From a virus: a DNA stretch of 39,323 nt. Every line of letters begins with the position of its first letter. Within the stretch, counting starts at the first letter, position 1. The position numbers were made by a program, and so were the translations under genes. The notes below the pieces were generated by a model that made no database searches, was not told where the DNA came from, and was given only the letters and a program-made list of their open reading frames with translations. This document shows, piece by piece, positions 259 through 39,323 of the stretch. The stretch covers positions 1 to 39,323 of the IMG/VR virus record IMGVR_UViG_3300045201_000011; one strand, given 5' to 3'.

Positions 259-1383
259 TTAAGCGGCGAACTTTTTAATCACGTCTAGCTCTTCCGGCGA
301 GAGGCTGGAAAGCATTTCTTTGAGGGCTTCCAAGCGGCTTGGCTGGGAAGGCTTAGGCTTATTTTCCATACGCTGAATTGCGCCGTCCAGATCATCACTG
401 AACAAGTGAATGTAGCGCTGGGTGACCGTCATAGTTGAGTGACCGGCAAGCTTCTGGATGACTGCCGCGTTCTCTCCCTTGGAAGCGAGACGTGAACAAA
501 ACTCGTGACGCATCACATGAGGAACGAATTGTTTGTCATGTTCCAGACCGAGAGTTTCGGACATGCGGCCCCAGTAGTGTGCAACCTGATTCTTGTTCAA
601 GTTTGGAAACACTTCACGACCGGCCAGCTCATCCCTACGGCGCACCAAGATTGCTTTAGCGCGTTCCGTGAGGGGCACTGTGCGGCTCTTCCCTGACTTG
701 CTGCGCTGACCGGCTGCACCAGCTCCCCAAACCGTCACACGACCATCTTGAGCATCGTCGTGATTAAGCGCTAGGACTTCCCCTTGGCGCATTCCGGTAT
801 CGACCGAGAGAATCACATAGTCCTGCATGTCCTGATGCGAAATTCGCTCAAAGAATGCCAAGACCAGTTTTTCTTCCTTATCGGTGAAGCGTCTAACGCG
901 ATGTTCGCTTTCCTTGTAACGCGCAAATTTAGGCTTGCGGTCAACAATTCCCAGCTCTTCGGCCTCCGTCATTGAACGCGAGAGCGCCGCAATCTTGCGG
1001 TTAACAGTGCCCGGAGCATTTCCATCAGCGAGCAAACGTGCCCTCGCCTTGTCAATGTCAGACTTAGTGAGCTTGGCGATAGGAAGGTTTGAGCCAATGA
1101 TCGAAATGATCGACTGGGCATTAATGAGCTGCTTGTCGCCTGACGGCATCGGTGCCCAGTGAGTATCGTAGACGTACTGCACAAGCTCAGCGAGAGTAAA
1201 CGGCAAATCGCCTTTCCTCTTCACAACGCGCTCACCCATATCGATAGGCTCGCCTTTAATAAGCTTGGTTTGTGTCTCCAGCTCCCACAGACTTGCTTCC
1301 TGCTCATTGGTGAAGCTTCGCCTGTATCTCTTCCCCTTAAAATTGACAGTCCCTTCCCAAGAAGAACCCCTTGGTTTTGCCAT
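259..1383 (-). CDS. int: Tyrosine recombinase / phage integrase
   Basis: 374-aa ORF. Catalytic signature is visible: TGMRQGE (Arg), HVMRHEF (H-x-x-R), GHSTMTVTQRYIH (His...Tyr). Lies next to a tRNA gene. Confidence 0.9.
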   Translation of the reverse strand: MAKPRGSSWEGTVNFKGKRYRRSFTNEQEASLWELETQTKLIKGEPIDMGERVVKRKGDLPFTLAELVQYVYDTHWAPMPSGDKQLINAQSIISIIGSNLPIAKLTKSDIDKARARLLADGNAPGTVNRKIAALSRSMTEAEELGIVDRKPKFARYKESEHRVRRFTDKEEKLVLAFFERISHQDMQDYVILSVDTGMRQGEVLALNHDDAQDGRVTVWGAGAAGQRSKSGKSRTVPLTERAKAILVRRRDELAGREVFPNLNKNQVAHYWGRMSETLGLEHDKQFVPHVMRHEFCSRLASKGENAAVIQKLAGHSTMTVTQRYIHLFSDDLDGAIQRMENKPKPSQPSRLEALKEMLSSLSPEELDVIKKFAA

Positions 1384-1429
1384 TGAAATAGCTCCTGTTT
1401 GTTGCTATGGACGCGGAAAGCCAATCACT

Positions 1430-1516
1430 GCCCGCATGGTGAAACTGGTAAACACTGCGGACTTAAAATCCGCCGCCCGTTTGGGCTTGCCGGTTCAAGT
1501 CCGGCTGCGGGCACCA
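1430..1516 (+). tRNA. tRNA-Leu (anticodon UAA), type II, 87 nt, CCA encoded
   Basis: Manual cloverleaf. Acceptor GCCCGCA/TGCGGGC; D stem GTG/CAC with a GG loop. Anticodon stem GCGGA/TCCGC with loop CTTAAAA (anticodon TAA). Long variable arm GCCC-GTTT-GGGC; T arm GCCGG-TTCAAGT-CCGGC. Discriminator A, then CCA. Confidence 0.85.
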
Positions 1517-1993
1517 TCAAACTGGCGATGTTTTCCCGCGTGTAGTCTTAGGTGCTTCGGATGCTGCCGCTGCTGCTTCCTCATGCATTCGCTCAATCTC
1601 AAGGCGAGCATCTGTTTCTTTATCGATTGAATAATCAGGATTGATTGTCCGCATCAGCTTCGTGATGAACGCCTTCCCCTCAGCGGTGAGAAAAACGAGA
1701 CGGCGTCGAGGTTCCCTAGGGTCAATAACCGCTTCCATAAGGTTTAACCCCGGCTTGCCCAAGCGGTGATATTTACTCATCGCCTGAACATTTCGAGAGA
1801 TTGACGATTGCGACAAGCCCGTGAGCTTTGACAGTTCATTCATCGTCAATCCCGGCTTACTGACAACACAGAGCAGAATATCTGCTTGCTGTATTGGCAT
1901 ATCAGGAGAGAGCTTGCGTAGAAGTCGAATAGCGTTCGCCATGACGAAAGTTACATCGTCACTTTTCCCTACCAAAAGTTCGCGCTTATCCAT
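1517..1993 (-). CDS. MarR-type winged-helix transcriptional regulator (candidate prophage repressor)
   Basis: ORF track gives 1517..2050. Start trimmed to ATG 1993 (MDKRELLV...) with GGAG 9 nt upstream. wHTH core LTMNELSKLTGLSQSSISRNVQAM...RRRLVFLTAEGKAF. The stop codon abuts the tRNA 3' end. Confidence 0.65.
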   Translation of the reverse strand: MDKRELLVGKSDDVTFVMANAIRLLRKLSPDMPIQQADILLCVVSKPGLTMNELSKLTGLSQSSISRNVQAMSKYHRLGKPGLNLMEAVIDPREPRRRLVFLTAEGKAFITKLMRTINPDYSIDKETDARLEIERMHEEAAAAASEAPKTTRGKTSPV

Positions 1994-2035
1994 GTTTACT
2001 CCATCTATTCGCCTATGAGGAATTTCCCACAGGTG

Positions 2036-2064
2036 GATATATGGCCGCAAGAAGGTAATGTCTA
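2036..2064 (-). promoter_or_regulatory. Sigma70-like promoter candidate for the MarR-type gene (TAGACA-N17-TATATC), overlapping a GTGGATA-box
   Basis: Minus strand reads TAGACA (2064-2059), a 17-nt spacer, then TATATC (2041-2036) followed by CACCTGTGG. Confidence 0.3.
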
Positions 2065-2107
2065 GCTACCTACTTACTTCCGCCCTCCTGATTGATAGAC
2101 CTCCCGA

Positions 2108-2413
2108 CTAATTCAAAATCTCTTCTAGCTGGACCGCTGATGTTGCGTCTGCAACTTCCTCCTGCTCCTGCATTAGTGGAAACCAGTGGGCAAGCAAGAC
2201 GATGAAAATCAGCGAGCCGAATACTGCTAAGCGCCCAAAAGGAAACGAGCGCTCAGATTCATTGTCACGGGAATTAGAAATGGTGAGCTGCAAGCGTCCG
2301 ATAAACACTTCGCAGTCGTTTTTATGTTTGATCAGGCCAAAACCTACCCATTCGCTGCGAATTTCAACGAAAATTTCCTTTTTGAAAGGAAGCTTGCACC
2401 AATAACCAAACAT
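2108..2413 (-). CDS. Hypothetical protein with one predicted transmembrane helix
   Basis: 101-aa ORF. ATG is preceded by TAGGGA. Hydrophobic segment LAVFGSLIFIVLLAHWF and an acidic C-terminus. Confidence 0.45.
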   Translation of the reverse strand: MFGYWCKLPFKKEIFVEIRSEWVGFGLIKHKNDCEVFIGRLQLTISNSRDNESERSFPFGRLAVFGSLIFIVLLAHWFPLMQEQEEVADATSAVQLEEILN

Positions 2414-2431
2414 TCGAAATAATCCCTAGAA

Positions 2432-2659
2432 CTAGTTCGCGCCCGTCCCGTAACCGTTGCGCGAGTGGATTGATTTGGGCACAAAATTCCCGGCCTGCCG
2501 CTCGCTTTCTGCAAACGGAAGTTGGGGAACCTCGTGCCCTTGTATGTGACCAGTCATCCTGTCCCGATAAAACACTAACGTTCGGGATTTCCGGTAACGT
2601 GTCCGAAGTTTCTCGAACCGCCCACTTTCTATTAACGGATTATTTGCTTTTGTTCCCAT
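2432..2659 (-). CDS. Hypothetical basic protein (weak call)
   Basis: 75-aa ORF with an ATG start. Competes with a plus-strand ORF at 2470..2739. No recognisable motif. Confidence 0.3.
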   Translation of the reverse strand: MGTKANNPLIESGRFEKLRTRYRKSRTLVFYRDRMTGHIQGHEVPQLPFAESERQAGNFVPKSIHSRNGYGTGAN

Positions 2660-2874
2660 TCTGTTCCACTCTTATCCACAGGAAATATGACAGTGATAAA
2701 CTGAAAACGTGGAAGCCCACGCTTATCAGCATGAATTGAGAAAAACTCATAACGTCAACATTTCCAATGAGTTACGATAAGCGAGGAATGCTTCCTCTGC
2801 ACAAACCAAAGGGCAGTTTGAGCGCCACCATGTCAGGAAACATGTCTGTTTCATCTGTTGAACTCCATCTTGCG

Positions 2875-2935
2875 CTGATCATCAGGCCACGGGCGCGACC
2901 CCATGGCGACCAAAGCAAAAACCTTGGTTTCACAG
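2875..2935 (-). ncRNA. Hammerhead ribozyme motif, type II, copy HH1 (stem II has a U-U at 10.1/11.1)
   Basis: Minus strand reads CUGU GAA ACCAAGG-UUUUUG-CUUUGGU C GCCAUGGG-GUCGCG-CCCGUGGC CUGAUGA UCAG. The core CUGAUGA, GAA, A15.1-U16.1 and GUC are all present. Confidence 0.55.
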
Positions 2936-2959
2936 TTGATTTTAATGGGTTTTCTTTCC

Positions 2960-2988
2960 TTGTCCGCTCAGTGATATGGGATTATGTT
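2960..2988 (+). promoter_or_regulatory. Sigma70-like promoter candidate for the plus-strand gene (TTGTCC-N17-TATGTT)
   Basis: TTGTCC at 2960-2965, a 17-nt spacer, TATGTT at 2983-2988, about 30 nt upstream of the AAGGA RBS and ATG 3021. Confidence 0.3.
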
Positions 2989-3020
2989 CCCACTGTCCGC
3001 TTACGCTAAGGAATTACGTC

Positions 3021-3299
3021 ATGAACCGAATCGAAGATGAGCTATGCTTCCGGGTAGACCAGTGGACGGATGATGGAAGCAGGATTGATTCCGTTCTATC
3101 GCTCTCAATGAATGCGCTGATTGCACAGGGGGCATTTTATGAGGCCGTTAAACTCCGTCCTCACAAGCGCTTGACCATGCGGCATAAGTCGCGAGTGATT
3201 AATGAGCATGTTCCTGAACGACTACGCTTAATAGACATTGAGAAACGCGCCGAGCTGGAGCGGATGATTGCGGAAGCAAAGAACGCCCGCAAGAAATAG
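3021..3299 (+). CDS. Hypothetical protein; the only plus-strand protein gene in the genome
   Basis: ORF track gives 2976..3299. Start trimmed to ATG 3021 (MNRIEDELCF...) with AAGGA 8 nt upstream. 92 aa. Confidence 0.55.
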   Translation: MNRIEDELCFRVDQWTDDGSRIDSVLSLSMNALIAQGAFYEAVKLRPHKRLTMRHKSRVINEHVPERLRLIDIEKRAELERMIAEAKNARKK

Positions 3300-3300
3300 C

Positions 3301-3358
3301 TGCTCATCAGGCCAAAGGCGCAACCCCATGGCGACCGGAGAAAGCCCCCGGTTTCGCA
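3301..3358 (-). ncRNA. Hammerhead ribozyme motif, type II, copy HH2
   Basis: Minus strand reads UGC GAA ACCGG-GGGCUUUCU-CCGGU C GCCAUGGG-GUUGCG-CCUUUGGC CUGAUGA GCA. Predicted cleavage is after C at 3333. Confidence 0.75.
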
Positions 3359-3380
3359 TTGTTCTGCATATGTGGATTAG

Positions 3381-4022
3381 TTAGTGCGAAAAAATTGCAA
3401 CGCCTGAGGGAACATCAATCACATTGTAATCGTGTTTAATGTCGCGGGCGTATGCTTCATAATCGAAATAATCGATTAGAAACTGGGGAATCTTGCCGTC
3501 TGATGAGTGGCAAGACATTTGTTCGTCTGCTGCATTATCTGCATACTCCCGGAAGCTCTCAGAGATGCAAATGAATTGGTTCTCCATAGCGTCCGAGGCG
3601 TCCTTGAGATTACCGAAGTCCTTGATGATCGCCTCTAAGTCTTCCGAGTCGTGGCTGTCATGCTCTTCTAGGAACTCGACATAATCAGCAATTGCTTGCA
3701 GGCCGGGATATTCCCCGAAGGTTGACGGCATGTCGTCATAATCATGAACTGCATATTCTTCCGCGCTCGCTACCCTACCAGAACCGATGCATTCGGGACA
3801 TTCGCAAAGTCTCGTGTCACCTGTTTCGCTGTTATGGTGAGTGACTTTACCCTCACCTTCACAACGGACACATTTCACGGTCACGTTAGGAAACTTGCTT
3901 TCTCTGAGCATGGCGTTGACTTCATCCTGCATTTCATCAACGTCACTAGATGCTTCAACCCAGCGGCCATGCAGAACGCCGTTGTTATAAGATGCGAGAC
4001 AGGCAACGTAAAACCGAGCCAT
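3381..4022 (-). CDS. ardA: ArdA-family anti-restriction protein with an inserted double CxxCxGxG zinc-finger segment
   Basis: 213 aa. N-terminus MARFYVACLASYNNGVLHGRWVEA and ...EEYAVHDYDD..., a very acidic body and C-terminal YFDYEAYARDIKHDY fit my memory of ArdA. The insert is CVRCEGEGKV...CPECIGSGRV. Confidence 0.7.
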   Translation of the reverse strand: MARFYVACLASYNNGVLHGRWVEASSDVDEMQDEVNAMLRESKFPNVTVKCVRCEGEGKVTHHNSETGDTRLCECPECIGSGRVASAEEYAVHDYDDMPSTFGEYPGLQAIADYVEFLEEHDSHDSEDLEAIIKDFGNLKDASDAMENQFICISESFREYADNAADEQMSCHSSDGKIPQFLIDYFDYEAYARDIKHDYNVIDVPSGVAIFSH

Positions 4023-4126
4023 GATTAACCCCTTTGCGCTTGAAAATATATGTGATGAGGATTAATTGTGGGGAAGCCTCCGGCCTTATGACCGGAAGCC
4101 CCCTTGCGCTAGAGGGTTAAGAAAAG

Positions 4127-4157
4127 GGTCACAGTGATCGAGACTGTGGCCTTTTTT
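4127..4157. terminator. Bidirectional intrinsic-terminator-like hairpin between HH3 and ardA
   Basis: GGTCACAGT-gatcgag-ACTGTGGCC followed by TTTTTT on the plus strand and preceded by GAAAAG (CUUUUC after the stem on the minus strand). Confidence 0.5.
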
Positions 4158-4239
4158 CGTTTCCAGCGAAGGGTGATTGACCATGTGAACATGTCAAACT
4201 CCCCACAATATGCCCCTGTAACGTCGAGGCGTTCCGCGC

Positions 4240-4301
4240 TTGCTCATCAGGTTCTAGCCGCGACACTAGAACGACCAGAGGGAAGCCCCCCGGTTTCGCA
4301 A
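4240..4301 (-). ncRNA. Hammerhead ribozyme motif, type II, copy HH3
   Basis: Minus strand reads UUGC GAA ACCGGGGGG-CUU-CCCUCUGGU C GUUCUAG-UGUCGCGG-CUAGAAC CUGAUGA GCAA. Predicted cleavage is after C at 4273. Confidence 0.75.
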
Positions 4302-4322
4302 TGGTATGCATTGGTGGATTGA

Positions 4323-4502
4323 TTAAGCCGTTTGAAGCTTGCCGGTCAGTGCCAGCGAGTGAAAGAGATTATGAGCGCCGTTGATATTGGCCTCAGTGGG
4401 TGACCGTTCTGCCTTATCACATGCAGCATTGTAGGCATCGGCTTGTTGTTTGGTGAAAACATAACCAGTGAATGCCCTGTAACCTTCCGCGATGCGTTCC
4501 AT
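4323..4502 (-). CDS. Hypothetical 59-aa protein (below the ORF-track cutoff)
   Basis: Hand translation: MERIAEGYRAFTGYVFTKQQADAYNAACDKAERSPTEANINGAHNLFHSLALTGKLQTA. Its ATG overlaps the upstream stop (TAATG), which suggests translational coupling. Confidence 0.5.
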   Translation of the reverse strand: MERIAEGYRAFTGYVFTKQQADAYNAACDKAERSPTEANINGAHNLFHSLALTGKLQTA

Positions 4503-4753
4503 TAAATCAGACCTTCCAGTTCGTTTAGAATTTCGTTTATTGAGGGTGCATCCTGTGGTTTCGCTTTGCGGACAATTAAGCCAGCCTTACGCAACTGAGC
4601 GAGAACGCTAGGAACTTGAGGCGATAAGAACGCCACTAGACCATTTGCATCAGCTTTCGCCATGGTACGCCATGCCTCTTCCCCGGCTTCCGTTTCGGGA
4701 TAGAACCGCGTCCACAATCCATCATGACAGGCGTATGTTAGATCGGCTTGCAT
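4502..4753 (-). CDS. Hypothetical protein (83 aa)
   Basis: ORF track gives 4502..4756 (GTG). ATG at 4753. Coupled to the upstream small ORF (TGAGTGATG) and to the downstream ORF. Confidence 0.55.
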   Translation of the reverse strand: MQADLTYACHDGLWTRFYPETEAGEEAWRTMAKADANGLVAFLSPQVPSVLAQLRKAGLIVRKAKPQDAPSINEILNELEGLI

Positions 4754-4756
4754 CAC

Positions 4757-4846
4757 TCAGCCTTCCATTACGATTATTGAGATGAGCATAATCAGGCAGA
4801 TGAAACCGCCCATTGAGGCGAAAGCTAATGCTTCATTGAATGTCAT
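4757..4846 (-). CDS. Small hydrophobic peptide (29 aa)
   Basis: Hand translation: MTFNEALAFASMGGFICLIMLISIIVMEG. AAGGGA RBS 7 nt upstream. The stop abuts the next start. Confidence 0.4.
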   Translation of the reverse strand: MTFNEALAFASMGGFICLIMLISIIVMEG

Positions 4847-4860
4847 TTTGTTTCCCTTGG

Positions 4861-4910
4861 TTAGCGTTTAGGATGCTCCACAGTTCCCCGTGAAGGCACC
4901 TAAGGGCTAA
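4861..4910 (-). repeat. Structured 50-nt repeat, copy A (hairpin with GGAA tetraloop on the minus strand)
   Basis: 46/50 identical to 5105-5154. Minus strand reads CUUCACGG-GGAA-CUGUGGAG, flanked by UUAGG...CCUAA. Confidence 0.7.
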
Positions 4911-5087
4911 TCAGTAACCGGCCCACGTTCTCAGCGATGCAAAGTCCCCATCCCATGTGCCTGTAGTTTCACAGTGTTTTCCGTCTGCATTTGTGTAAGC
5001 ATCCTTGACTGTGATTGTGCCGTCCGCGTTATCGCTAATGAACCAATCATGTTGAGCGGCCCATGCGATTTGCTTCGTGTTCAACAT
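4911..5087 (-). CDS. Hypothetical 58-aa protein (below the ORF-track cutoff)
   Basis: Hand translation: MLNTKQIAWAAQHDWFISDNADGTITVKDAYTNADGKHCETTGTWDGDFASLRTWAGY. GAGGA RBS 7 nt upstream. Confidence 0.55.
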   Translation of the reverse strand: MLNTKQIAWAAQHDWFISDNADGTITVKDAYTNADGKHCETTGTWDGDFASLRTWAGY

Positions 5088-5104
5088 TCCGTTTTCCTCA
5101 TCAG

Positions 5105-5154
5105 TTAGCGTTTAGGATGCTTCACGGTTTCCCATGAAGGCACCTAAGGGCTAA
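5105..5154 (-). repeat. Structured 50-nt repeat, copy B (hairpin with GAAA tetraloop on the minus strand)
   Basis: Minus strand reads CUUCAUGG-GAAA-CCGUGAAG, flanked by UUAGG...CCUAA. Sits directly upstream of the RBS of ORF 4911..5087. Confidence 0.7.
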
Positions 5155-5945
5155 GCCCTAACCTGCATTGATATGCAGTAGTGGATAGAATGTAGTCCTA
5201 TTCAATTGTCAAAGAACTCAGAGGCTTAGCCCCTGCCCTTCCCGGCGTTTGCCGTTCGGTGATTTGGTTTATATCCACTAGTGCATAGATACGCAATAGC
5301 GAAAATGAAAAAATAGACACGCTATCCATCTTTTTTGGATAAGTGCCTGAATTTATTGAAAAGGAAATGCCACAAGCCCGCCACATGGGAACATGAAGAC
5401 GGCTAATGTTAGCGCCTTGAGGTGGCTTGAGGGCGACCAGTGGCGGCATGAGGTGGCGAAAAGGGCAGACGTGGAGACACTGAGACACGCACAGAAAGCC
5501 ACAAGCCTGCCCGCCTGCATTGCATCGGAAGCACTAGCGGAAGCCTTGAGCCTGCCCCCCGGTGATGCTCAGTCTCTTTGAAGTCCAGCAAATGCAGGGC
5601 TTACGGGAAACGTGTGGCGGATTTAGTGGCAAACGTGTGTGCCCGCGAGCCTTTACCGCGCACAGTGAGCGCCTGCTCGTGCCTTTCACCGCGCCCCCAC
5701 GGGGGGTACGCGCGCTGCCCCTCTATCGATTGCCGCCTCGGATTTTTTCGGGGAAATAGCCGCTACCCTTAGGGCATCACAAAGCATCCCTCAGGTTGAC
5801 TCAGGGAAGCTCGTGGGAAGCGGAGAAGCTCTAGGGTGAAGGAATGTAATAGGTGAACCTCAAGGCTCTCTGTGAGTCTCTGAGGCTGATTGTAGGTATT
5901 GACTTTCCCTACGAAGGCGTAAGCCTGAGAAGGGAAAGGGCGATC
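5155..5945. other. Long non-coding, short-repeat-dense region (candidate genome-end / concatemer-junction and early control region)
   Basis: No convincing ORF. Short direct repeats: GCCACAAGCC(C/T)GCC x2, GAGGTGGC x2, AACGTGTG x2, CCTTT(A/C)ACCGCGC x2, GGGAAGC x2. GC hairpin CCCCCACGGGGG. Confidence 0.5.
5184..5212 (-). promoter_or_regulatory. Candidate host-type early promoter (TTGACA-N17-TCTATC), overlapping a GTGGATA-box
   Basis: Minus strand has a perfect TTGACA (5212-5207), a 17-nt spacer and TCTATC (5189-5184). It faces the early small ORFs and ardA. Confidence 0.4.
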
Positions 5946-6281
5946 TCATTTTCTGCAAGGAAACAGGTTCGAACTAGCAACTTGAATTGCCAACGTAACA
6001 TTGTCGCCACTTCGATTTTTCAACCAAGAAACAGCTTTGATAATCTTGTCGTACGAGGTCTGTGAACGTCCTAAAGCAGGAGGCGGGCAACCAACAAGGC
6101 TAGGCGAAGCGGTATCCAGCACACCGTCAATATATCCCCAGCATCGATCTGTTGAGGCGTTACTCTCGAATTTACAAATGGAAAGGAACTCACCAATCTT
6201 CATCTTGGCGTAAGCGGGGTTAGCAGGAATGGCTAACACGATGGAGACTGATAGGAGAAGGCTTGAAACTAAGCGAGACAA
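5946..6281 (-). CDS. Secreted/periplasmic protein resembling Rap1a/Tai-type T6SS amidase immunity proteins
   Basis: 111 aa with a TTG start (AAGG upstream). Signal peptide MSRLVSSLLLSVSIVLAIPANPAYA. Mature part has the remembered family pattern: GEFLSIC...C-W-GYIDGVLD...GCPP...WL...LFPC. Confidence 0.5.
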   Translation of the reverse strand: MSRLVSSLLLSVSIVLAIPANPAYAKMKIGEFLSICKFESNASTDRCWGYIDGVLDTASPSLVGCPPPALGRSQTSYDKIIKAVSWLKNRSGDNVTLAIQVASSNLFPCRK

Positions 6282-6386
6282 TTAATAGTACCTTATGATG
6301 ATGGTCTGCCATCCTTAGCCTCTCAGAAGTCGAGAGGAAAGCCATGGAAATGATCATATACATAAGTAATTGAACCGGGCCTCCTC

Positions 6387-6404
6387 CTATGGTGAGGGGT
6401 AATT
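6387..6404 (-). promoter_or_regulatory. Phage RNAP promoter P1 (AATTACCCCTCACCATAG)
   Basis: 18/18 to the in-window consensus. Lies between the large-terminase stop and the Rap1a-like gene. Confidence 0.85.
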
Positions 6405-6452
6405 GGTTTGGCGAAAAAATAGGCAGGAGCAATGAATGCTCCCACCTAAATG

Positions 6453-8141
6453 CTAGTTAAGCCAGCCGCTTTCGTCCTTGCTATCGTGCCCACGATTACG
6501 TTGTACGAGGTCCATGAACTCCTGCAAGGCTTGGTCCCTCAAGTTCTCCACATGCTCGTCATGGGCCTTCTCTGTGTCTCTCGCCATGCTTTCAGCCCAG
6601 TAGCCTACAGCCATCGCCAACACGTCAAGACGGTCATCCTTAGCTAGAGAGCCACGGTCACGGGTGATGCGAGAGAGCTGATACATGAGCTGACGCTGAG
6701 GTTCAGCGGTCATCTTATGGTCAACCTCAATGACCTTCTGATCGAACACAAGCCGGTGCTGATTCATGATCGGCTCAAGGGTGTCGCATATGCGGCGTTC
6801 TTTCTGCTGACTGTGCTTCACCTCCTCTATACCTACAGCATAGATTCGGGACACGATTGGCTTGAGAAGCTGCGTGAACATGCCATCACCGAAGTTAGCT
6901 TCGACAATGATCTTGTTAACGCTGTGCGTCTTAGCCAGGACTGCCAGCCCCTTGAGGGTTGCTTCGCTGTAACCTTCCTTGAAGCCGCCTGATGCGACAA
7001 CGAAGAGGAAGCCATTAAGCTGCTTTACGATAGCGTAAGCGGTTTCGTCCTTGCCACGTCCTGAGGGGTCAATTGCCATGACACAACCGGAATACTCGGT
7101 CATCTCGTTCGATACCCACATAGGACGGAAGTAGGCATCGCCATTCAAGCCGACCATTGGAAGGTCGAGACGCTTATCAATATCCGAGGTCCAGACAAGC
7201 TTCACAGGCGCCATACGAGGGTCAAGCGAGGTAACCATAAGGTCACGGAACTTGAGCGGGTAGCGGTCCTGATCTGAGAGAGAGGTATCAAGCATGAACT
7301 GGAGAGCGAAGCCTGATCGACCATACGATGCTTCACGTTCCTGCAAGTCGAGGTCATGGAAGCGCTTCGGGTCAACTGGAGTACCTGCCCCCGCACCGTT
7401 CATAATCAACTGACTAACGAACGGAGCCAAACGTCCAAGGTACTTATCGGGATTTTCAGGGATACGGGCAGGCCAGACACGGATTTCATAGCCACGTTCA
7501 GGAAGTCGGTTATAAATCGACATTTCCGTCTGAGGCGTTCCGAGATAGATCACTCGGCCTCCGGGCTTTAGAACCGCGTCGAACTCCTTAATTCGCTCGG
7601 CCAACAAATCTCGCATCGTCGCGGTCATCGCATTGTTCAAGCTTTCAACGTCATCAGCAATGATCACGTCCGCACGAGAGCCGGTTAGCTGGCCGGTAAT
7701 GCCCACAGACTTAACCGAGGGCGACTGCGAAGCGCCTGCCGGTCCTACGTCAAAAGCAATATTACTATCACGCTGGCCTTTCCCCGGCTTGAGGTGAGCC
7801 AATATAGGCATCTCGGCAATCAGTCGCTTCGTGAATGTCGAGAACGCATCAGCGCGGTCTTTTGCAGCCGATACGACCATAATGTTGAGCTGAGGATTAT
7901 TTAGGAGCAGCCAACAAACGAAGGCACTTGTTACCCAGCTCTTACCTACGCCACGGAAGGCTTGAATGACGGAGCGCTTTGGCCCCTTCTGGAGATACTG
8001 AGCCATGTCATATTGCGTATCGGTTGGCTCGGGGAGATTAAGGTGCTGCCAGACTAGGAAGAGGAAGTTCCTGAAATCACGGCGCACGGGGTCGATTGGC
8101 GTCAAGCTCGTACTTGAAGCGCCATTAGATTGTACGTTCAT
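6453..8141 (-). CDS. Terminase large subunit (T7 gp19-like)
   Basis: ORF track gives 6453..8198. Start trimmed to ATG 8141 (MNVQSNG...). Walker-A-like FRGVGKSW, plus position and size typical of T7-type maturase B. Confidence 0.85.
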   Translation of the reverse strand: MNVQSNGASSTSLTPIDPVRRDFRNFLFLVWQHLNLPEPTDTQYDMAQYLQKGPKRSVIQAFRGVGKSWVTSAFVCWLLLNNPQLNIMVVSAAKDRADAFSTFTKRLIAEMPILAHLKPGKGQRDSNIAFDVGPAGASQSPSVKSVGITGQLTGSRADVIIADDVESLNNAMTATMRDLLAERIKEFDAVLKPGGRVIYLGTPQTEMSIYNRLPERGYEIRVWPARIPENPDKYLGRLAPFVSQLIMNGAGAGTPVDPKRFHDLDLQEREASYGRSGFALQFMLDTSLSDQDRYPLKFRDLMVTSLDPRMAPVKLVWTSDIDKRLDLPMVGLNGDAYFRPMWVSNEMTEYSGCVMAIDPSGRGKDETAYAIVKQLNGFLFVVASGGFKEGYSEATLKGLAVLAKTHSVNKIIVEANFGDGMFTQLLKPIVSRIYAVGIEEVKHSQQKERRICDTLEPIMNQHRLVFDQKVIEVDHKMTAEPQRQLMYQLSRITRDRGSLAKDDRLDVLAMAVGYWAESMARDTEKAHDEHVENLRDQALQEFMDLVQRNRGHDSKDESGWLN

Positions 8142-17774: not shown

Positions 17775-20143
17775 CACGTTCTCCTCGAACGGATGATGAA
17801 AGTCGCTTCCCATTCGGCGGACAAGAGTGCGCAAGGTAACGGGCTGTCATTGATAATCTCGATTTCGGTTTCTTCGGATTTACCGGAGATTGGGAACCGG
17901 AAACGACCAGACTCAAGCGAAGGCTCGCCAATGATGTTTCTGCCGCCACCTGTTACACGCCCTGAGAATACACTCGTGTAGACTTCCCTTCGGAAGGGCG
18001 TAACCTCAGCACGGAAATAACCGCTGTCGTTGTAGGTCAACGTCATGCGACGAAGCTGCATTCGACCGGCACCGACCGCCATTTGCCCCCCGCCAACAGC
18101 CTCCTCTTTAATAACTAGCTTTGAGAGACGGTATCGGAATGTGTACTTCTGCCCAGCGATGAAGTCTGTGACACGGCCCGCAATGATGAATGTATTGCTG
18201 CTATCCCATTTAAGCGGAATGAGCTGGCCCATACGATAAGGACCGTTATCTACACCAATGATCTGGAACTGTGCGGGACGAGTGACCTTGTAAGGCAGCT
18301 TGATCTGAGTTTGATCATTCGTTGCATCATAAACAACGGAACACTGAGAGGCATTCACACGCTGATCGAGATGAAAGGCAAAGTTGATACCGGGGTCAGT
18401 ACGGCCTGCCTCAAGACTGATCACTTCGAATAGAACTTGTCCATGGCGTTCAACCAGCATCCATAAGTCGCTTTCAATGAAATCCACATAAAGAACGGTT
18501 GTGTCCTCATCGAATATCCATTTCGACCAACTTGATTGAAGCTTCTCAAGCTCCTGCCAATAGTATTTGTAAACGTATAGTGCGTTCTTCTCTTTTGGCG
18601 AAAGCGCTACTAGAACGTCTTCATTCGAACTTGCGGCAAGCTTAGTCACACTTCCGGGGATATACTTGGGAACATGTGCGGTAACATCGGCGGCGTCATT
18701 CGTCTTCGTTTGTCCGTCAACATAATATTCCCGGATGCCGGAGTAAGCACCCTTGTTCATAGCAAAGTAGATATTTCGGCCAGCGCCTACAGGCTTCGCT
18801 AGGAGTGATGCCTGAAACTCAGTCGTTTGATTGATTGAGATTGTGTAAGGTGTCAGCGTATCGGCTGCCCCAAGCATGAACTGCGTCTGATCTGAGAATA
18901 GCAGAAGCGTTTCATTGAACGGTATAGCATGGCGTATGATGGAAACTTTAGTGTGACTGACGGCAACGTCGATCATGTCCGTATCGAGCGTTTGGGTCGC
19001 TGAGCTTCTCCAGAACGTAAAGAACTCACCTGCACGGGAGAATATCACATTCTCATCTGCAACCAGTCCTAAGCGGTTTCTGTGGAAGAAAATGTCATTA
19101 ATCTGTTTACCAATGAACGAAGGCTCAGGTACGCTTTCCGTGTCACCGACCTTGCGCTCATCCCATGGAATTTGCTCGAATGAAAACGTCCCGTCCGAGA
19201 GGCGTTTCAGCGCGTGAGGCATTGTTGCGCCATTGATACGGTATAGCTCACCGCCTTTGCACGATTCTTTCCAGATGCCAGTTGAGCTTCCGCCCGTAGG
19301 GTTGGAGAACTCTACCCAGTAGTTATCGAATGCTGATGACTGGTCACCGCCTATTTCGATCTGGAAGCCATGGAATGCCCTAGCCGGTAACTCAGAGAAG
19401 CGCTGAGCTGTATCCTTACAAACCTTGATTGCCTGATCACCGAGACCATCAGCGCTCGACACTGCGAAGTCTGCCCCATCCCATCTAGTGACGCGGATAG
19501 TCGAACCAAGTTGATTCAACGTGAACTGCGAAGTGAATGTCTGGTCAGCATTGAATAGGTTAACGAGCTTGCCCATAATGGCATCCGTAGCAATCTGCTC
19601 GGTGTGCGATTTATCTGAGCCATCCGGGGTCTTGAATGTCTTCTGAATGCCGCCAATGTTGACTGTGTAGTTTTGAGCATAAGCGCCTTGTCGTATCCAG
19701 ACTAACGCTTCCTTTGGTCTGCTAGGCGTAAGCTCATTCGTCATTCCAGCAGTGCGCGTGCTGTTTAGTATGAACGTATAATCGGCAATCGTTACAGCGG
19801 TGAAATCCTTGTCTGCTGCGGAGGTAGCGAGATAATTCTTACCGTTAGGAAACGACACGGGAACTTCGGTGCCGTTCATTCGAAAAACCCTAAGGTTTCC
19901 GTTGGTTATCACCACCGCATATCGTTCAACAGAATCTCGGTTGATCATGTGGACGAATGCAGTCCCGAAGCTGGTATCACTGATCTTTGCGACAAACCGA
20001 GATGGAGGCCGTTTCTTTAAGCCCTCGACAACAGAGCTATGGCCGTTCTCTTGAAGTTCACACTGAGAAGCCAGACGAAGCGAAGACGGCTGCTGCGATA
20101 CGCCATTGACGAGGTTCGGAATTGTTGAGCTAATCAGGGTCAT
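17774..20143 (-). CDS. Tail tubular protein B (T7 gp12-like)
   Basis: 789 aa. N-terminus MTLISSTIPNLVNGVSQQPSSLRL...EGLKKRPPS parallels T7 gp12 MALISQSIKNLKGGISQQP...EGLQKRPP. Confidence 0.9.
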   Translation of the reverse strand: MTLISSTIPNLVNGVSQQPSSLRLASQCELQENGHSSVVEGLKKRPPSRFVAKISDTSFGTAFVHMINRDSVERYAVVITNGNLRVFRMNGTEVPVSFPNGKNYLATSAADKDFTAVTIADYTFILNSTRTAGMTNELTPSRPKEALVWIRQGAYAQNYTVNIGGIQKTFKTPDGSDKSHTEQIATDAIMGKLVNLFNADQTFTSQFTLNQLGSTIRVTRWDGADFAVSSADGLGDQAIKVCKDTAQRFSELPARAFHGFQIEIGGDQSSAFDNYWVEFSNPTGGSSTGIWKESCKGGELYRINGATMPHALKRLSDGTFSFEQIPWDERKVGDTESVPEPSFIGKQINDIFFHRNRLGLVADENVIFSRAGEFFTFWRSSATQTLDTDMIDVAVSHTKVSIIRHAIPFNETLLLFSDQTQFMLGAADTLTPYTISINQTTEFQASLLAKPVGAGRNIYFAMNKGAYSGIREYYVDGQTKTNDAADVTAHVPKYIPGSVTKLAASSNEDVLVALSPKEKNALYVYKYYWQELEKLQSSWSKWIFDEDTTVLYVDFIESDLWMLVERHGQVLFEVISLEAGRTDPGINFAFHLDQRVNASQCSVVYDATNDQTQIKLPYKVTRPAQFQIIGVDNGPYRMGQLIPLKWDSSNTFIIAGRVTDFIAGQKYTFRYRLSKLVIKEEAVGGGQMAVGAGRMQLRRMTLTYNDSGYFRAEVTPFRREVYTSVFSGRVTGGGRNIIGEPSLESGRFRFPISGKSEETEIEIINDSPLPCALLSAEWEATFIIRSRRT

Positions 20144-20787: not shown

Positions 20788-20806
20788 TTATCCACAAGTG
20801 GATTAG
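20788..20806. promoter_or_regulatory. Palindromic GTGGAT-box pair containing a perfect DnaA-box sequence (TTATCCACA)
   Basis: TTATCCAC-AA-GTGGATTAG read directly. Lies between the capsid stop and the terminator. Confidence 0.4.
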
Positions 20807-25233: not shown

Positions 25234-25248
25234 GGAAAACTAAATTTC

Positions 25249-25266
25249 CTATGGTGAGGGGTAATT
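25249..25266 (-). promoter_or_regulatory. Phage RNAP promoter P2 (AATTACCCCTCACCATAG)
   Basis: 18/18 to consensus. Heads the structural (late) gene block. Confidence 0.85.
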
Positions 25267-25846
25267 AGAAGCGGGTAACAGCTTCGGAGACGGAAGCTTC
25301 AAGATCATCGATAGTCCCGTCATTGATTAGCGCCTTGTCAAAGGCATGATTTGAAAGGAGACCTTCCGAGGGGTGACCTGATACTGAGATTTCCACGCGT
25401 GGGTTGTAGATGCACCAAGCTTCTCCACCCATGGATTTAACAAGGTCGTACTCATTCGGGAAACGAAGGTCGTCAATGACCACTCGCTTGCCCTGCTCCA
25501 CAATCTTGCGGGCTTTACGGGCTGCTATGGTCGTCCAAAGGTTCGGGTCGATATTGGCCCGTCCCCATTCAACGCCAAGCGTCTGCATGATTTTACGGGT
25601 GGTGAGGTTATCAAAGCCAAACTCAGTGAGGGGTTCTTCCTTCCGGTGCCCCTCAACAAAATCTTCGAGCTGGTCTTTCGGTACGCCGATCTGTTCAAGG
25701 AAGCAGCGTGTCATGGCCTTCAATGGGTCAGCGAACTTCACGTTCTGAAAACCCAGCCCCTTGGTGAGGAACTGGGTTGCCGTTGACTTTCCCATCTGTG
25801 CCGCTGGTGAGTAAAAGGCAATCAGACTGGGGTTTTTGGTGTCCAT
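25265..25846 (-). CDS. P-loop dNMP-kinase-like protein
   Basis: 193 aa. P-loop SPAAQMGKST and the VIDDLRFPNE motif are recalled from phage deoxynucleoside-monophosphate kinases. Confidence 0.5.
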   Translation of the reverse strand: MDTKNPSLIAFYSPAAQMGKSTATQFLTKGLGFQNVKFADPLKAMTRCFLEQIGVPKDQLEDFVEGHRKEEPLTEFGFDNLTTRKIMQTLGVEWGRANIDPNLWTTIAARKARKIVEQGKRVVIDDLRFPNEYDLVKSMGGEAWCIYNPRVEISVSGHPSEGLLSNHAFDKALINDGTIDDLEASVSEAVTRF

Positions 25847-29426: not shown

Positions 29427-29496
29427 GGTGCTGTCCTCTCTCAGGAGTGACGCCTCACAGGAATGCACCTGTGAAGCTATATGCATTAGTGGATGA

Positions 29497-29949: not shown

Positions 29950-29979
29950 GAGTTTGTTTCCATATGTGGATAGATTAAA

Positions 29980-32459: not shown

Positions 32460-32486
32460 AAACCCCCGGCTGGATACCGAGGGTTT
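32460..32486 (-). other. Promoter-proximal hairpin plus U-tract downstream of P3
   Basis: Minus strand reads AAACCCUCGG-UAUCCAG-CCGGGGGUUU, then UCUCUUUCC. Shares GCCGGGGGUUUUCUC with the P4 module. Confidence 0.5.
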
Positions 32487-32494
32487 GTGAGCTG

Positions 32495-32512
32495 CTATGG
32501 TGAGGGGTAATT
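32495..32512 (-). promoter_or_regulatory. Phage RNAP promoter P3
   Basis: 18/18 to consensus. Overlaps the stop codon of ORF 32511..32834. Confidence 0.85.
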
Positions 32513-32834
32513 AGTCGTTCAGTTTATTACGCTGGACGAAACGCCTCGCTCTTCGAACGAAGTGATACTTTCGAGTATCAATACGTCGGACATGCTTTCG
32601 AATGAGCGGAAGAGGAGGAAGCTCGTGGGTAACGCGACTGAGCGCTTCAAGTGAGTCAGCAATAAACTGAGCCAGACATTGAATGAGCGCTATGATGATC
32701 AACGGAAAGAAGATCAAAGCACATGTCACTGTCAATGCTATGATGCTCAACCGCAAAGCAATGTAGGGTAATATGGCGCGTCTTAGATGACGGTACTTCC
32801 TCATTACTTGCACGTCCTTGAAGAGGTTACTCAT
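32511..32834 (-). CDS. Membrane protein translationally coupled to the amidase (holin-like candidate)
   Basis: 107 aa. Hydrophobic stretch ILPYIALRLSIIALTVTCALIFFPLIIIALIQCL and a highly basic C-terminus. Its ATG overlaps the amidase stop. Confidence 0.45.
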   Translation of the reverse strand: MSNLFKDVQVMRKYRHLRRAILPYIALRLSIIALTVTCALIFFPLIIIALIQCLAQFIADSLEALSRVTHELPPLPLIRKHVRRIDTRKYHFVRRARRFVQRNKLND

Positions 32835-34638: not shown

Positions 34639-34665
34639 CTTCGGATGAGCTGAGTTTATAGGTTG

Positions 34666-34683
34666 CTATGGTGAGGGGTAATT
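34666..34683 (-). promoter_or_regulatory. Phage RNAP promoter P4
   Basis: 18/18 to consensus. Overlaps the stop codon of ORF 34682..35128. Confidence 0.85.
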
Positions 34684-35128
34684 AGACGCTTGCGCTCTCA
34701 CCAAAGGATTGATTTGCGATAGTGACCACATCAAGTGGGTCAGAGAATTGGTTTCCCTTCCGACCTGCCATGAGGCTCCTGACCACGATGGAGAATGCCC
34801 ATACTTGAGAGCTGACTGAGCGGTGCTTTTTGAGCTGGTAATCGTGCCCCCGGAAATCCTTATTTGTGATTAGGTCGAAGGCTAGTTCGTCGTTAACGTC
34901 CACTTCAAAAGCGGTTCCGCCAACCAGCTTGAAACCGATCGAAGTAATCTCACCGATCACTGCGCCTCCACCTCCTCGGTAGGAAGTACCCCAAGCCACC
35001 TTCGTACCTACCTTGAGCGGCTGGCCGGTACGGTCGAGGATGGATGAGTTGTCAGGAGTGTATACATGCTTATCCGTTGCGGCCACGCGATAGCGCTTGC
35101 CGTCAATTTCAGTGATCTTGAATGACAT
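34682..35128 (-). CDS. Hypothetical protein
   Basis: 148-aa ORF in the class II region. No motif recognised. Confidence 0.5.
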   Translation of the reverse strand: MSFKITEIDGKRYRVAATDKHVYTPDNSSILDRTGQPLKVGTKVAWGTSYRGGGGAVIGEITSIGFKLVGGTAFEVDVNDELAFDLITNKDFRGHDYQLKKHRSVSSQVWAFSIVVRSLMAGRKGNQFSDPLDVVTIANQSFGESASV

Positions 35129-36010: not shown

Positions 36011-36039
36011 GGTGATTTCCTTGCTCGAAATGAGAACTT

Positions 36040-36057
36040 CTATGGTGAGGGGTAATT
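36040..36057 (-). promoter_or_regulatory. Phage RNAP promoter P5
   Basis: 18/18 to consensus, just downstream of the RNAP gene (the phi-1.1 position in T7). Confidence 0.85.
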
Positions 36058-36089
36058 CACCAGCGCAATTAAATGCACTGGTGGATAGA

Positions 36090-38746: not shown

Positions 38747-38768
38747 AGGCAGCGCGTTTTGAGAGCTG

Positions 38769-38786
38769 CTATGGTGAGGGGTAATT
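38769..38786 (-). promoter_or_regulatory. Phage RNAP promoter P7, upstream of the RNAP gene
   Basis: 18/18 to consensus. Starts 2 nt after the stop of ORF 38789..39142. Confidence 0.8.
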
Positions 38787-38788
38787 GG

Positions 38789-39142
38789 TCAGTTGACCGT
38801 CAAAGCGCGTGTAATCTCGGCCTGTTTGCCGATCACATCACAGGCCCATGCGACTGCTTGAAAGCGTTCATCATTGGTGAAGGCTACTGCGTAACCTGTT
38901 CCTGCTTCGAGGTCGCTCCGAGTGACACGAGCGGTAAACCAATCAGGCAACCTATCGTAACGGTCGAGGAGGTATTTGCAGTGATGATCGAAGGTGTCGT
39001 CACGCCAGACTGACACGTCCAATTCGTAATAGAGATACGAGGTCCAGAGGAACATTTCGCATTGGCTTTTGAGGACTTTCTCCTCTGACCATCTATCGCT
39101 GTGGCGGAAGTATCCCTTCCCGTCCTTAATCCATTCCGTCAT
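38789..39142 (-). CDS. Hypothetical early protein (117 aa)
   Basis: ORF track gives 38789..39259. Trimmed to ATG 39142 (MTEWIKDGKG..., GGAG 9 nt upstream). The extended N-terminus would read through the GTGGATA-box and the end repeat. Confidence 0.5.
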   Translation of the reverse strand: MTEWIKDGKGYFRHSDRWSEEKVLKSQCEMFLWTSYLYYELDVSVWRDDTFDHHCKYLLDRYDRLPDWFTARVTRSDLEAGTGYAVAFTNDERFQAVAWACDVIGKQAEITRALTVN

Positions 39143-39196: not shown

Positions 39197-39323
39197 AAGT
39201 GGGTAACTATGCATTAGTGGATAGATTAAAGCTGTAAGAAAAGGCCGGAGATTTACCATCCCGGCAACGTGGTAACTTCAATCTATTCACTAGTGGAAAT
39301 GTCGATGACGGTCTTTTAAGTCC
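39197..39323. repeat. Right copy of the exact 127-bp end duplication
   Basis: Identical to 1-127. Indicates a circularly closed assembly or terminal redundancy. Confidence 0.95.

Follow-up and report, generated by a model that had tools for sequence, protein, structure and literature searches.

The hammerhead/ardA locus

The stretch analyzed here, hereafter the window, is the IMG/VR virus record IMGVR_UViG_3300045201_000011 over its full 39,323 nt, and its minus strand carries three type II hammerhead ribozymes (HH1, HH2, and HH3) that bound the anti-restriction gene ardA and, beyond it, a segment antisense to a conserved gene, orf92. The window is a complete temperate T7-like phage (Autographiviridae, Paadamvirus-like) of a rhizobial host, with a genome of about 39.2 kb, and corresponds to JGI metagenome contig 3300045228 Ga0485444_00566. 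Its terminal 127 nt are identical (1-127 and 39197-39323), indicating a circular assembly with an overlap, and the same genome was recovered from other samples as different circular permutations. Pfam searches identified a T7-type RNA polymerase, single-stranded DNA-binding protein, endonuclease I, amidase, primase-helicase, family A DNA polymerase, 5′-3′ exonuclease, portal, scaffold, capsid, tail fibre, and T7-type large terminase, and genes for a tyrosine integrase, a MarR-type regulator, and a tRNA-Leu are present as well. All credible protein genes lie on the minus strand, orf92 excepted, and the hammerhead/ardA region sits between the terminase and marR/integrase genes.

A search of the window with Rfam cmscan at the gathering threshold, which is 37 bits for Hammerhead_II (RF02276), returned exactly three matches to this family, all on the minus strand and spanning no more than 1.4 kb, and otherwise only the tRNA. 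HH1 (4301..4234, 43.4 bits, E-value 9e-6) has C17 at 4273, a predicted cleavage at 4273|4272, and a stem II of UUGC/GCAA; HH2 (3359..3294, 45.7 bits, E-value 2e-6) has C17 at 3333, a predicted cleavage at 3333|3332, and a stem II of UGC/GCA; HH3 (2935..2869, 37.3 bits, E-value 3.5e-4) has C17 at 2908, a predicted cleavage at 2908|2907, and U10.1-U11.1 followed by CAG/CUG. The C17 positions were counted twice, on the cmscan alignments and on a separate, model-based alignment, with the same outcome. A lenient Rfam search of positions 2400-5200 revealed no fourth ribozyme. The three copies are alike in their CUGAUGA and GAAA cores, the A15.1-U16.1 pair closing stem III, and the GUC cleavage site, and the core residues C3 U4 G5 A6 N7 G8 A9, G12 A13 A14, A15.1-U16.1, and H17 are present in all of them. 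The cmscan structure lines display the type II topology, with stems I and III closed by loops and stem II open, and the minimum-free-energy fold of HH1 is the canonical three-way junction. The N10.1-N11.1 pair is G-C in HH1 and HH2 and U-U in HH3, where three Watson-Crick pairs follow. This U-U variant is fixed in contigs from other samples, and the counterpart of HH3 in a related locus (the third ribozyme of L130) has the canonical G-C at 10.1-11.1. Natural U10.1-U11.1 hammerheads have been reported to be active, U-U being the best-tolerated mispair (Perreault et al., 2011; PMC3088659).

Cleavage at these sites would release two units from the minus-strand RNA: one of 940 nt (3333..4272), comprising the stem I hairpin, a small-ORF leader, ardA, and the stem III hairpin, and one of 425 nt (2908..3332), antisense to the whole orf92 transcription unit. 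An initial annotation, made from the DNA letters alone, had proposed these three cleavages and two unit lengths, and both Rfam and the alignments agree with it.

The fold of these ribozymes was then assessed with a covariance model built from nine copies; 22 copies were gathered from the window and its relatives, and the alignment of the nested pairs was fitted to the model. Across the 22 copies, 91% of the cells hold standard pairs compared with 67% in shuffles, none of 500 shuffles reached the observed score, and both sides have changed in 14 of the 20 pairs. Stem III is 100% paired, with four of six pairs changed on both sides, and pairing reaches 97% in stem I, where all seven pairs have changed on both sides; shifting the partner by one to three columns reduces pairing to 29-40%. 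A pseudoknot between loop I and the 3′ tail, located outside the search model, also covaries: the pair 78-105 occurs as CG in nine copies, GC in five, AU in three, and UA in one, while 79-104 and 80-103 are retained in 19-20 of the 22 (HH2 has U-U at the variable pair). Together, the compensatory changes and the pseudoknot covariation show that the hammerhead fold is under selection.

Contents of the two predicted units

The ardA gene (3381..4022, minus strand) encodes a 213-aa protein that matches Pfam PF07275 (9e-32) and the PHROG anti-restriction protein; the PF07275 match covers the full length of the family (111 bits for a cut-off of 27, residues 5-208). Homologues of 50-66% identity occur in Rhizobiales and Rhodobacterales, and a contig search with the single ArdA protein retrieved only distant (~25% identity) ArdA loci of Firmicutes. 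Residues ~50-85 of this ArdA hold an inserted pair of CXXCXGXG motifs, similar to the zinc finger of DnaJ or Anti-TRAP (Pfam PF15777, 1.6e-4), an insertion common to the rhizobial clade of ArdA homologues, some of which are flagged PF00684.

The initial annotation described the 940-nt RNA as carrying only ardA; the identity of the gene stands, and the "only" has to be given up, as the unit also contains a 27-codon small ORF and two covarying hairpins. The small ORF (4109..4192, minus strand; MFTWSITLRWKRKKATVSITVTLFLTL followed by a stop codon) is preceded by a GGGGAG Shine-Dalgarno sequence. It belongs to a leader lying between HH1 and ardA (4192..4070, minus strand), which we compared in 11 loci (the window, L130, L051, L054, L043, L044, L129, L131, L134, L137, and L138). 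In these loci the small ORF has 27-28 codons and always starts with ATG and ends with TAG; an indel of 3 nt keeps the frame, many of the changes are synonymous or at third positions, and the consensus reads M-x-x-W-S/T-I/F-T-L-R-W-K-x-K-K-A-T-V-x-I-T-V-T-L-F-L-T-L. Hairpin 1 (4127..4151, minus strand) lies inside the small ORF, pairing GGCCACAGU with ACUGUGACC, followed by CUUUUCUU, and shows compensatory changes in the relatives. Terminator prediction listed it as terminator-like (4148..4130), a role that we rejected as its U-tract is not kept in L054, L134, and L137. Hairpin 2 (4070..4103, minus strand) directly follows the stop codon of the small ORF; RNAalifold predicts 15 pairs, many of them changed on both sides. 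The lenient Rfam search of 2400-5200 yielded no family for the leader or for hairpin 2. The leader is kept even where the downstream gene is not ardA, and may be a leader-peptide regulatory element or encode a small protein.

The leader also helps to place the locus in the phage genome. A blastn search of the region against GenBank phages gave the 140-nt leader as the sole match, in two Rhizobium phages. The Rhizobium phage RHEph01, a Paadamvirus of the Autographiviridae, has a linear genome in which the leader homologue is found 0.9 kb from the left end, with no strong hammerhead preceding it. Therefore, judging from gene order, the ardA region of the window is probably the first-entering, early region, equivalent to the location of gene 0.3 in T7.

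The second unit lies opposite orf92 (3021..3299, plus strand), which encodes a conserved 92-aa protein and whose stop codon overlaps the 3′ tail of HH2. Its four homologues (P0122-P0125) are 63-75% identical, with 41 invariant residues, and in all three homologue loci fetched (L129-L131) the gene is opposite to the early-gene strand. No match was found in Pfam, in PHROG, or in the PDB (profile search against PDB sequences), and its AlphaFold model is poor (pLDDT 62). Upstream of orf92 lie a promoter-like element, CTTGTC-N18-TATGTT (2959..2988, plus strand), and an AAGGA Shine-Dalgarno sequence (3008-3012). The window and L130 share a CTTGnn-N18-TATGTT block and the Shine-Dalgarno sequence amid otherwise diverged DNA, so that this block is probably the orf92 promoter and the 425-nt unit would be antisense to a complete, independently promoted gene. 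The antisense relationship noted in the initial annotation thus concerns a real gene, which is not the sole plus-strand gene as had been stated: a tRNA-Leu(UAA) gene is found at 1430-1516, between marR and the integrase gene and on the strand opposite all minus-strand protein genes. The integrated prophage L130 has this tRNA gene in the corresponding position, which suggests that the phage itself carries it.

Hammerhead arrays and cassettes in related phages

Related rhizobial T7-like phages carry arrays of two to five type II hammerheads around variable small early genes. L142 has five on one strand within 2.8 kb (1340-4110), L130 has four within 1.9 kb (4847-6756), and arrays of three surround other cassette genes in L051, L054, L134, and L138. 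Measured between cleavage sites, 5′ to 3′ on the hammerhead strand, the spacings are 940 and 425 nt in the window; 474, 936, and 418 nt in L130; 940 and 486 nt in L054; 973 and 781 nt in L051; 612 and 867 nt in L134; and 808 and 1042 nt in L138. Across the relatives, the first slot holds either ardA or the gene for a DUF7249 protein. Five different contents were found in the second slot, with one or two unrelated sense-strand ORFs in some loci and the inverted orf92 in the window and L130. The prophage L130 keeps the order hammerhead, ardA, hammerhead, inverted orf92, hammerhead, and its ArdA and orf92 proteins are nonetheless only ~66-68% identical to those of the window.

The inverted cassette raises the idea that the array serves antisense control, with HH2 and HH3 freeing a separate 425-nt RNA, capped by hairpins, that would silence orf92, transcribed from its own promoter and perhaps in the lysogen, once early lytic transcription begins. 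The conservation of orf92 and its opposite orientation in the three fetched contexts would fit such a role, as would the conserved promoter-like element and Shine-Dalgarno sequence inside the cassette and the persistence of the hammerhead-flanked inverted layout in L130 despite ~32% protein divergence. However, orf92 lacks flanking hammerheads in L129 and L131, the second slot holds sense-strand genes in L051, L054, L134, and L138, and the inverted-orf92 layout within an array occurs in two loci only. Hammerhead-free orf92 loci and sense-strand genes in the second slot indicate that the ribozymes are not tied to an antisense function, and we consider this explanation rather unlikely.

The variability of the cassettes could also be read at the DNA level, the ~70-nt ribozymes acting mainly as homologous linkers through which early accessory or anti-defence cassettes are swapped or duplicated, with cleavage being secondary or neutral. 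Indeed, the cassette content between conserved hammerheads differs among the relatives, and, in the window genome, HH2 and HH3 share 84% identity across 45 nt. Yet stems I and III and the pseudoknot have undergone compensatory changes, and the catalytic core is invariant; these substitutions keep the RNA fold rather than the sequence, which fits selection on catalysis and not on DNA homology. A role as mere module borders is therefore quite improbable.

Relationship to the published locus of Agrobacterium tumefaciens C58

Clustered hammerheads flanking genes in prophages were described by Perreault et al. (2011, PLoS Comput Biol; PMC3088659). In a prophage of A. tumefaciens C58, triple type II hammerheads flank ardA and a gene of unknown function, and cleavage was observed at all three sites both in vitro and in Escherichia coli. 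The same authors raised the possibility that the array is processed into single-gene mRNAs, and also raised and sought spliced or circular products, of which none was detected (PMC3088659). We found that the published HH1, HH2, and HH3 oligonucleotides match the hammerheads of L054 base for base, and that the published construct note "940->384" agrees with the 940-nt HH1-HH2 spacing computed for L054. These two matches identify L054 as the C58 locus of that study, which makes the window an uncultured relative of a locus already described and tested by experiment.

Both are T7-like, both have 940 nt between HH1 and HH2, and both follow the order tail/terminase, small genes, hammerhead, leader, ardA, hammerhead, second cassette, hammerhead, small genes, marR, and integrase. 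HH1 and HH2 of both loci also fall into one sequence subclass (GUCGCGCC loop, AGCG tail). In contrast, the ArdA proteins are only ~54% identical, and the second cassette is a sense-strand ORF in C58 and the inverted orf92 in the window. HH3 differs as well: that of the window is of the HH1/HH2 subclass with U-U at 10.1/11.1, whereas in that of C58 A9 is followed by an additional U and the pseudoknot is UGGCA/UGCC.

The arrangement has therefore been known since 2011, and the window adds another example with a variant second cassette. The novelty implied by the initial annotation was overstated, as the arrangement, its processing, and its circularization were all published at that time. Among the later papers in the library searched, we found none linking hammerheads with ardA or with phage circular RNAs. 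Elsewhere, type II hammerheads near phage genes of Desulfovibrio vulgaris cleave in their native host, as seen by cyPhyRNA-seq (PMC8782182); these are single ribozymes at separate loci, in contrast to the array of the window.

A contig junction at the predicted HH1 cleavage site

One contig bears on cleavage at HH1 in a natural setting. Contig L004 (identical to L150; JGI 3300047599 Ga0485954_04108; 2280 nt) consists of two segments of the window phage, both in mRNA sense, in which window positions 19475..18592, inside the nozzle gene, are joined directly to 4272..2877 at an unambiguous junction where the two segments share no bases. The right side of this junction is G4272, the first nucleotide of the predicted HH1 3′ product. 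The 8-mer GTTCTAGT is present where the right part begins and again 24 nt ahead of the left breakpoint. The chance that one of the ~60 contig ends and junctions examined would fall on any of the three sites is ~0.005. About 25 more contigs of the window phage, retrieved through look-ups of neighbouring proteins, had no other end or junction on a cleavage site, and a metagenome scan for ribozyme 3′ halves gave three unrelated contigs, none of them from the window's own project. In cattle, expressed sequence tags that fuse a hammerhead 3′ product to snRNAs were regarded as hinting at activity in vivo (Perreault et al., 2011; PMC3088659). If L004 comes from a metatranscriptome, the junction similarly hints at a natural 5′ end at G4272, captured by template switching or ligation; if the sample was DNA, the junction is unexplained.

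Ribozyme cleavage as a probable means of insulating early RNAs

Our preferred explanation, to which we give a probability of roughly 65%, is that hammerhead cutting during transcription yields hairpin-capped, mutually insulated early RNAs. The ribozymes would cut the early minus-strand RNA as it is made, producing the 940-nt RNA with the small-ORF leader and ardA, and the 425-nt RNA antisense to orf92. Since type II hammerheads are cut between two closed stems, III and I, each new product end would be capped by a hairpin. The upstream product would end with the stem III hairpin plus one nucleotide bearing a 2′,3′-cyclic phosphate, and the downstream product would begin with the stem I hairpin and a 5′-OH. 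In bacterial RNA decay, such ends should slow 3′ exonucleases and 5′-end-dependent entry of RNase E, and slowed decay or insulation may be the benefit for which cleavage is selected. Each cassette would thus give rise to a stable RNA whose fate is insulated from that of its neighbours, as with the RNase III sites near T7 gene 0.3 or RiboJ-type insulators. Cleavage would uncouple the ardA mRNA from the upstream small genes and keep it apart from downstream sequence that can pair with the orf92 mRNA into double-stranded RNA; any role of the antisense unit itself is one that we infer.

A close functional parallel is found in T7, whose early mRNA is cut by RNase III at R0.3 and R0.5, around gene 0.3 (ocr). 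The genome position is the same, and, as in T7, a first-expressed anti-restriction gene would be cut from a polycistronic early RNA to give hairpin-ended products. The difference is that a host enzyme cuts in T7, whereas the RNA itself is predicted to do so in the window, leaving 5′-OH and 2′,3′-cyclic phosphate ends instead of 5′-P and 3′-OH. The initial annotation had assigned the ribozymes to this role of RNase III; their early position at the cassette borders and the cleavage observed in C58 agree with the proposal, and its consequence for RNA stability or translation is what we infer. The concept of RiboJ-type synthetic insulators fits the function proposed here, RiboJ being an engineered type III ribozyme.

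Units bounded by two hammerheads, with half a ribozyme at each end, are also known from viroids, satellite RNAs, and retrozymes (PMC6155905, PMC7229834), and this geometry is behind the notion of a circularizable ardA RNA put forward in the initial annotation. In this scenario, the unit ends would be joined by the reverse ribozyme reaction or by a host RtcB-type ligase, giving a circular ardA mRNA and a circular antisense RNA. The predicted 5′-OH and 2′,3′-cyclic phosphate ends would suit RtcB, and the HH1 5′ end joined to another RNA-sense segment in L004 could be a ligation product, although this junction is intermolecular and equally well explained by template switching of reverse transcriptase. 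The chimeric hammerheads of the excised units could still form stem II (GCA/UGC in unit 1; GCAG/CUGU, with one G-U, in unit 2), a compatibility that is automatic since all copies share GC/GC as the first two stem II pairs. The known systems use type I or III ribozymes with long helices that hold the ends together, in non-coding replicons or retroelements ligated by the host tRNA ligase. By contrast, the units of the window are protein-coding and bounded by type II ribozymes, whose open stem II of 2-4 bp is the sole contact remaining after cleavage. The duplex energy between the first 120 nt and the last 120 nt of each unit does not stand out from shuffled controls (z-scores of -0.18 and -1.55), a Pfam scan of 30 phage proteins revealed no RNA ligase, and circles were sought but not detected for the orthologous C58 array (PMC3088659). 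Circular or religated RNAs are therefore very improbable. Equally remote is the broader proposal that hammerhead 5′-OH ends are ligated in the native host, L004 being a natural ligation product and the ardA and antisense units circularizable too; if true, ligated units would be a natural counterpart of the expression systems for circular RNA that combine ribozymes with RtcB.

Several observations weigh against the insulation of early RNAs by ribozyme cleavage and must temper it. HH3 scores just above the gathering threshold of RF02276 and carries the U-U mismatch, and its minimum-free-energy fold sequesters part of the core. L004 reads through the HH2 and HH3 sites, giving no evidence of cleavage there. 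The array is dispensable, given that several close ArdA loci have a single hammerhead or lack one altogether. Self-cleavage at the three sites of the window is predicted from the motifs and from the orthologue, no bacterial hammerhead is known to confer a benefit of stabilization or insulation, and a 2017 review still treated the role of these ribozymes in prokaryotes as an open question (PMC6155905).

Other features of the region

A motif, TATCCAC-N3-TGCAT, accompanies two of the ribozymes. One copy (AATCCACCAATGCAT, 4306..4320, minus strand) comes right after the stop codon of a 59-aa gene and 7 nt upstream of HH1, and another (AATCCACATATGCAG, 3364..3378, minus strand) follows the stop codon of ardA directly and lies 7 nt upstream of HH2. 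Allowing at most two mismatches, the window contains 19 matches for 2.4 expected, which include, besides these two, 13-27, 2168-2182, 5173-5187, 5272-5286, 20789-20803, 29481-29495, 29958-29972, and 36073-36087. They are mostly on the minus strand, intergenic, and directly after stop codons, and some are palindromic. In the relatives, the motif lies upstream of most hammerheads in first or second position and also occurs at hammerhead-free sites. It could be a protein operator (possibly for MarR), a DnaA-box-like site, or an RNA signal. Pairing of the 5′ ATCCAC with the 3′ flank, either as an extension of stem II or to mask the Shine-Dalgarno sequence of the small ORF, was considered and dropped, as this pairing is not conserved across copies.

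A T7-type promoter-like repeat (AATTACCCCTCACCATAG, minus strand) was identified by repeat analysis in six copies: 6376-6408, 25238-25270, 32484-32516, 34655-34687, 36029-36061, and 38758-38790. A strong terminator (6448..6420) lies downstream of the terminase gene, and the copy at 6408..6376 follows it and is directed into the ardA region, so the phage RNA polymerase may also read the array late in infection. Directly downstream of this last phage promoter-like site, a gene at 5946-6281 (minus strand) encodes a 111-aa protein with a signal-peptide-like N-terminus, whose similarity to Rap1a immunity proteins is weak and falls below the cut-off (Pfam PF18602, 4.7e-5). Two copies of a 63-nt repeat (4860-4922 and 5104-5166, 87% identical) each follow a small early gene and form a long minus-strand hairpin (z-scores of -1.9 and -3.3) that is a possible RNase III-type site or terminator. 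The ribozymes may thus not be the only processing sites of the early RNA.

Implications for phage hammerheads

On the question of what bacterial and phage hammerheads are for, this locus adds comparative material rather than a new category. Rhizobial T7-like phages that have diverged from one another keep the ardA array, and in them the ribozymes border exchangeable early-gene cassettes. In the window, the first ribozyme is coupled to a conserved leader with a small ORF and hairpins, and an inverted, independently promoted cassette gene is predicted to result in a ribozyme-bounded antisense RNA. Together, these features offer handles for testing hammerheads as natural RNA insulators or stabilizers of anti-defence genes.

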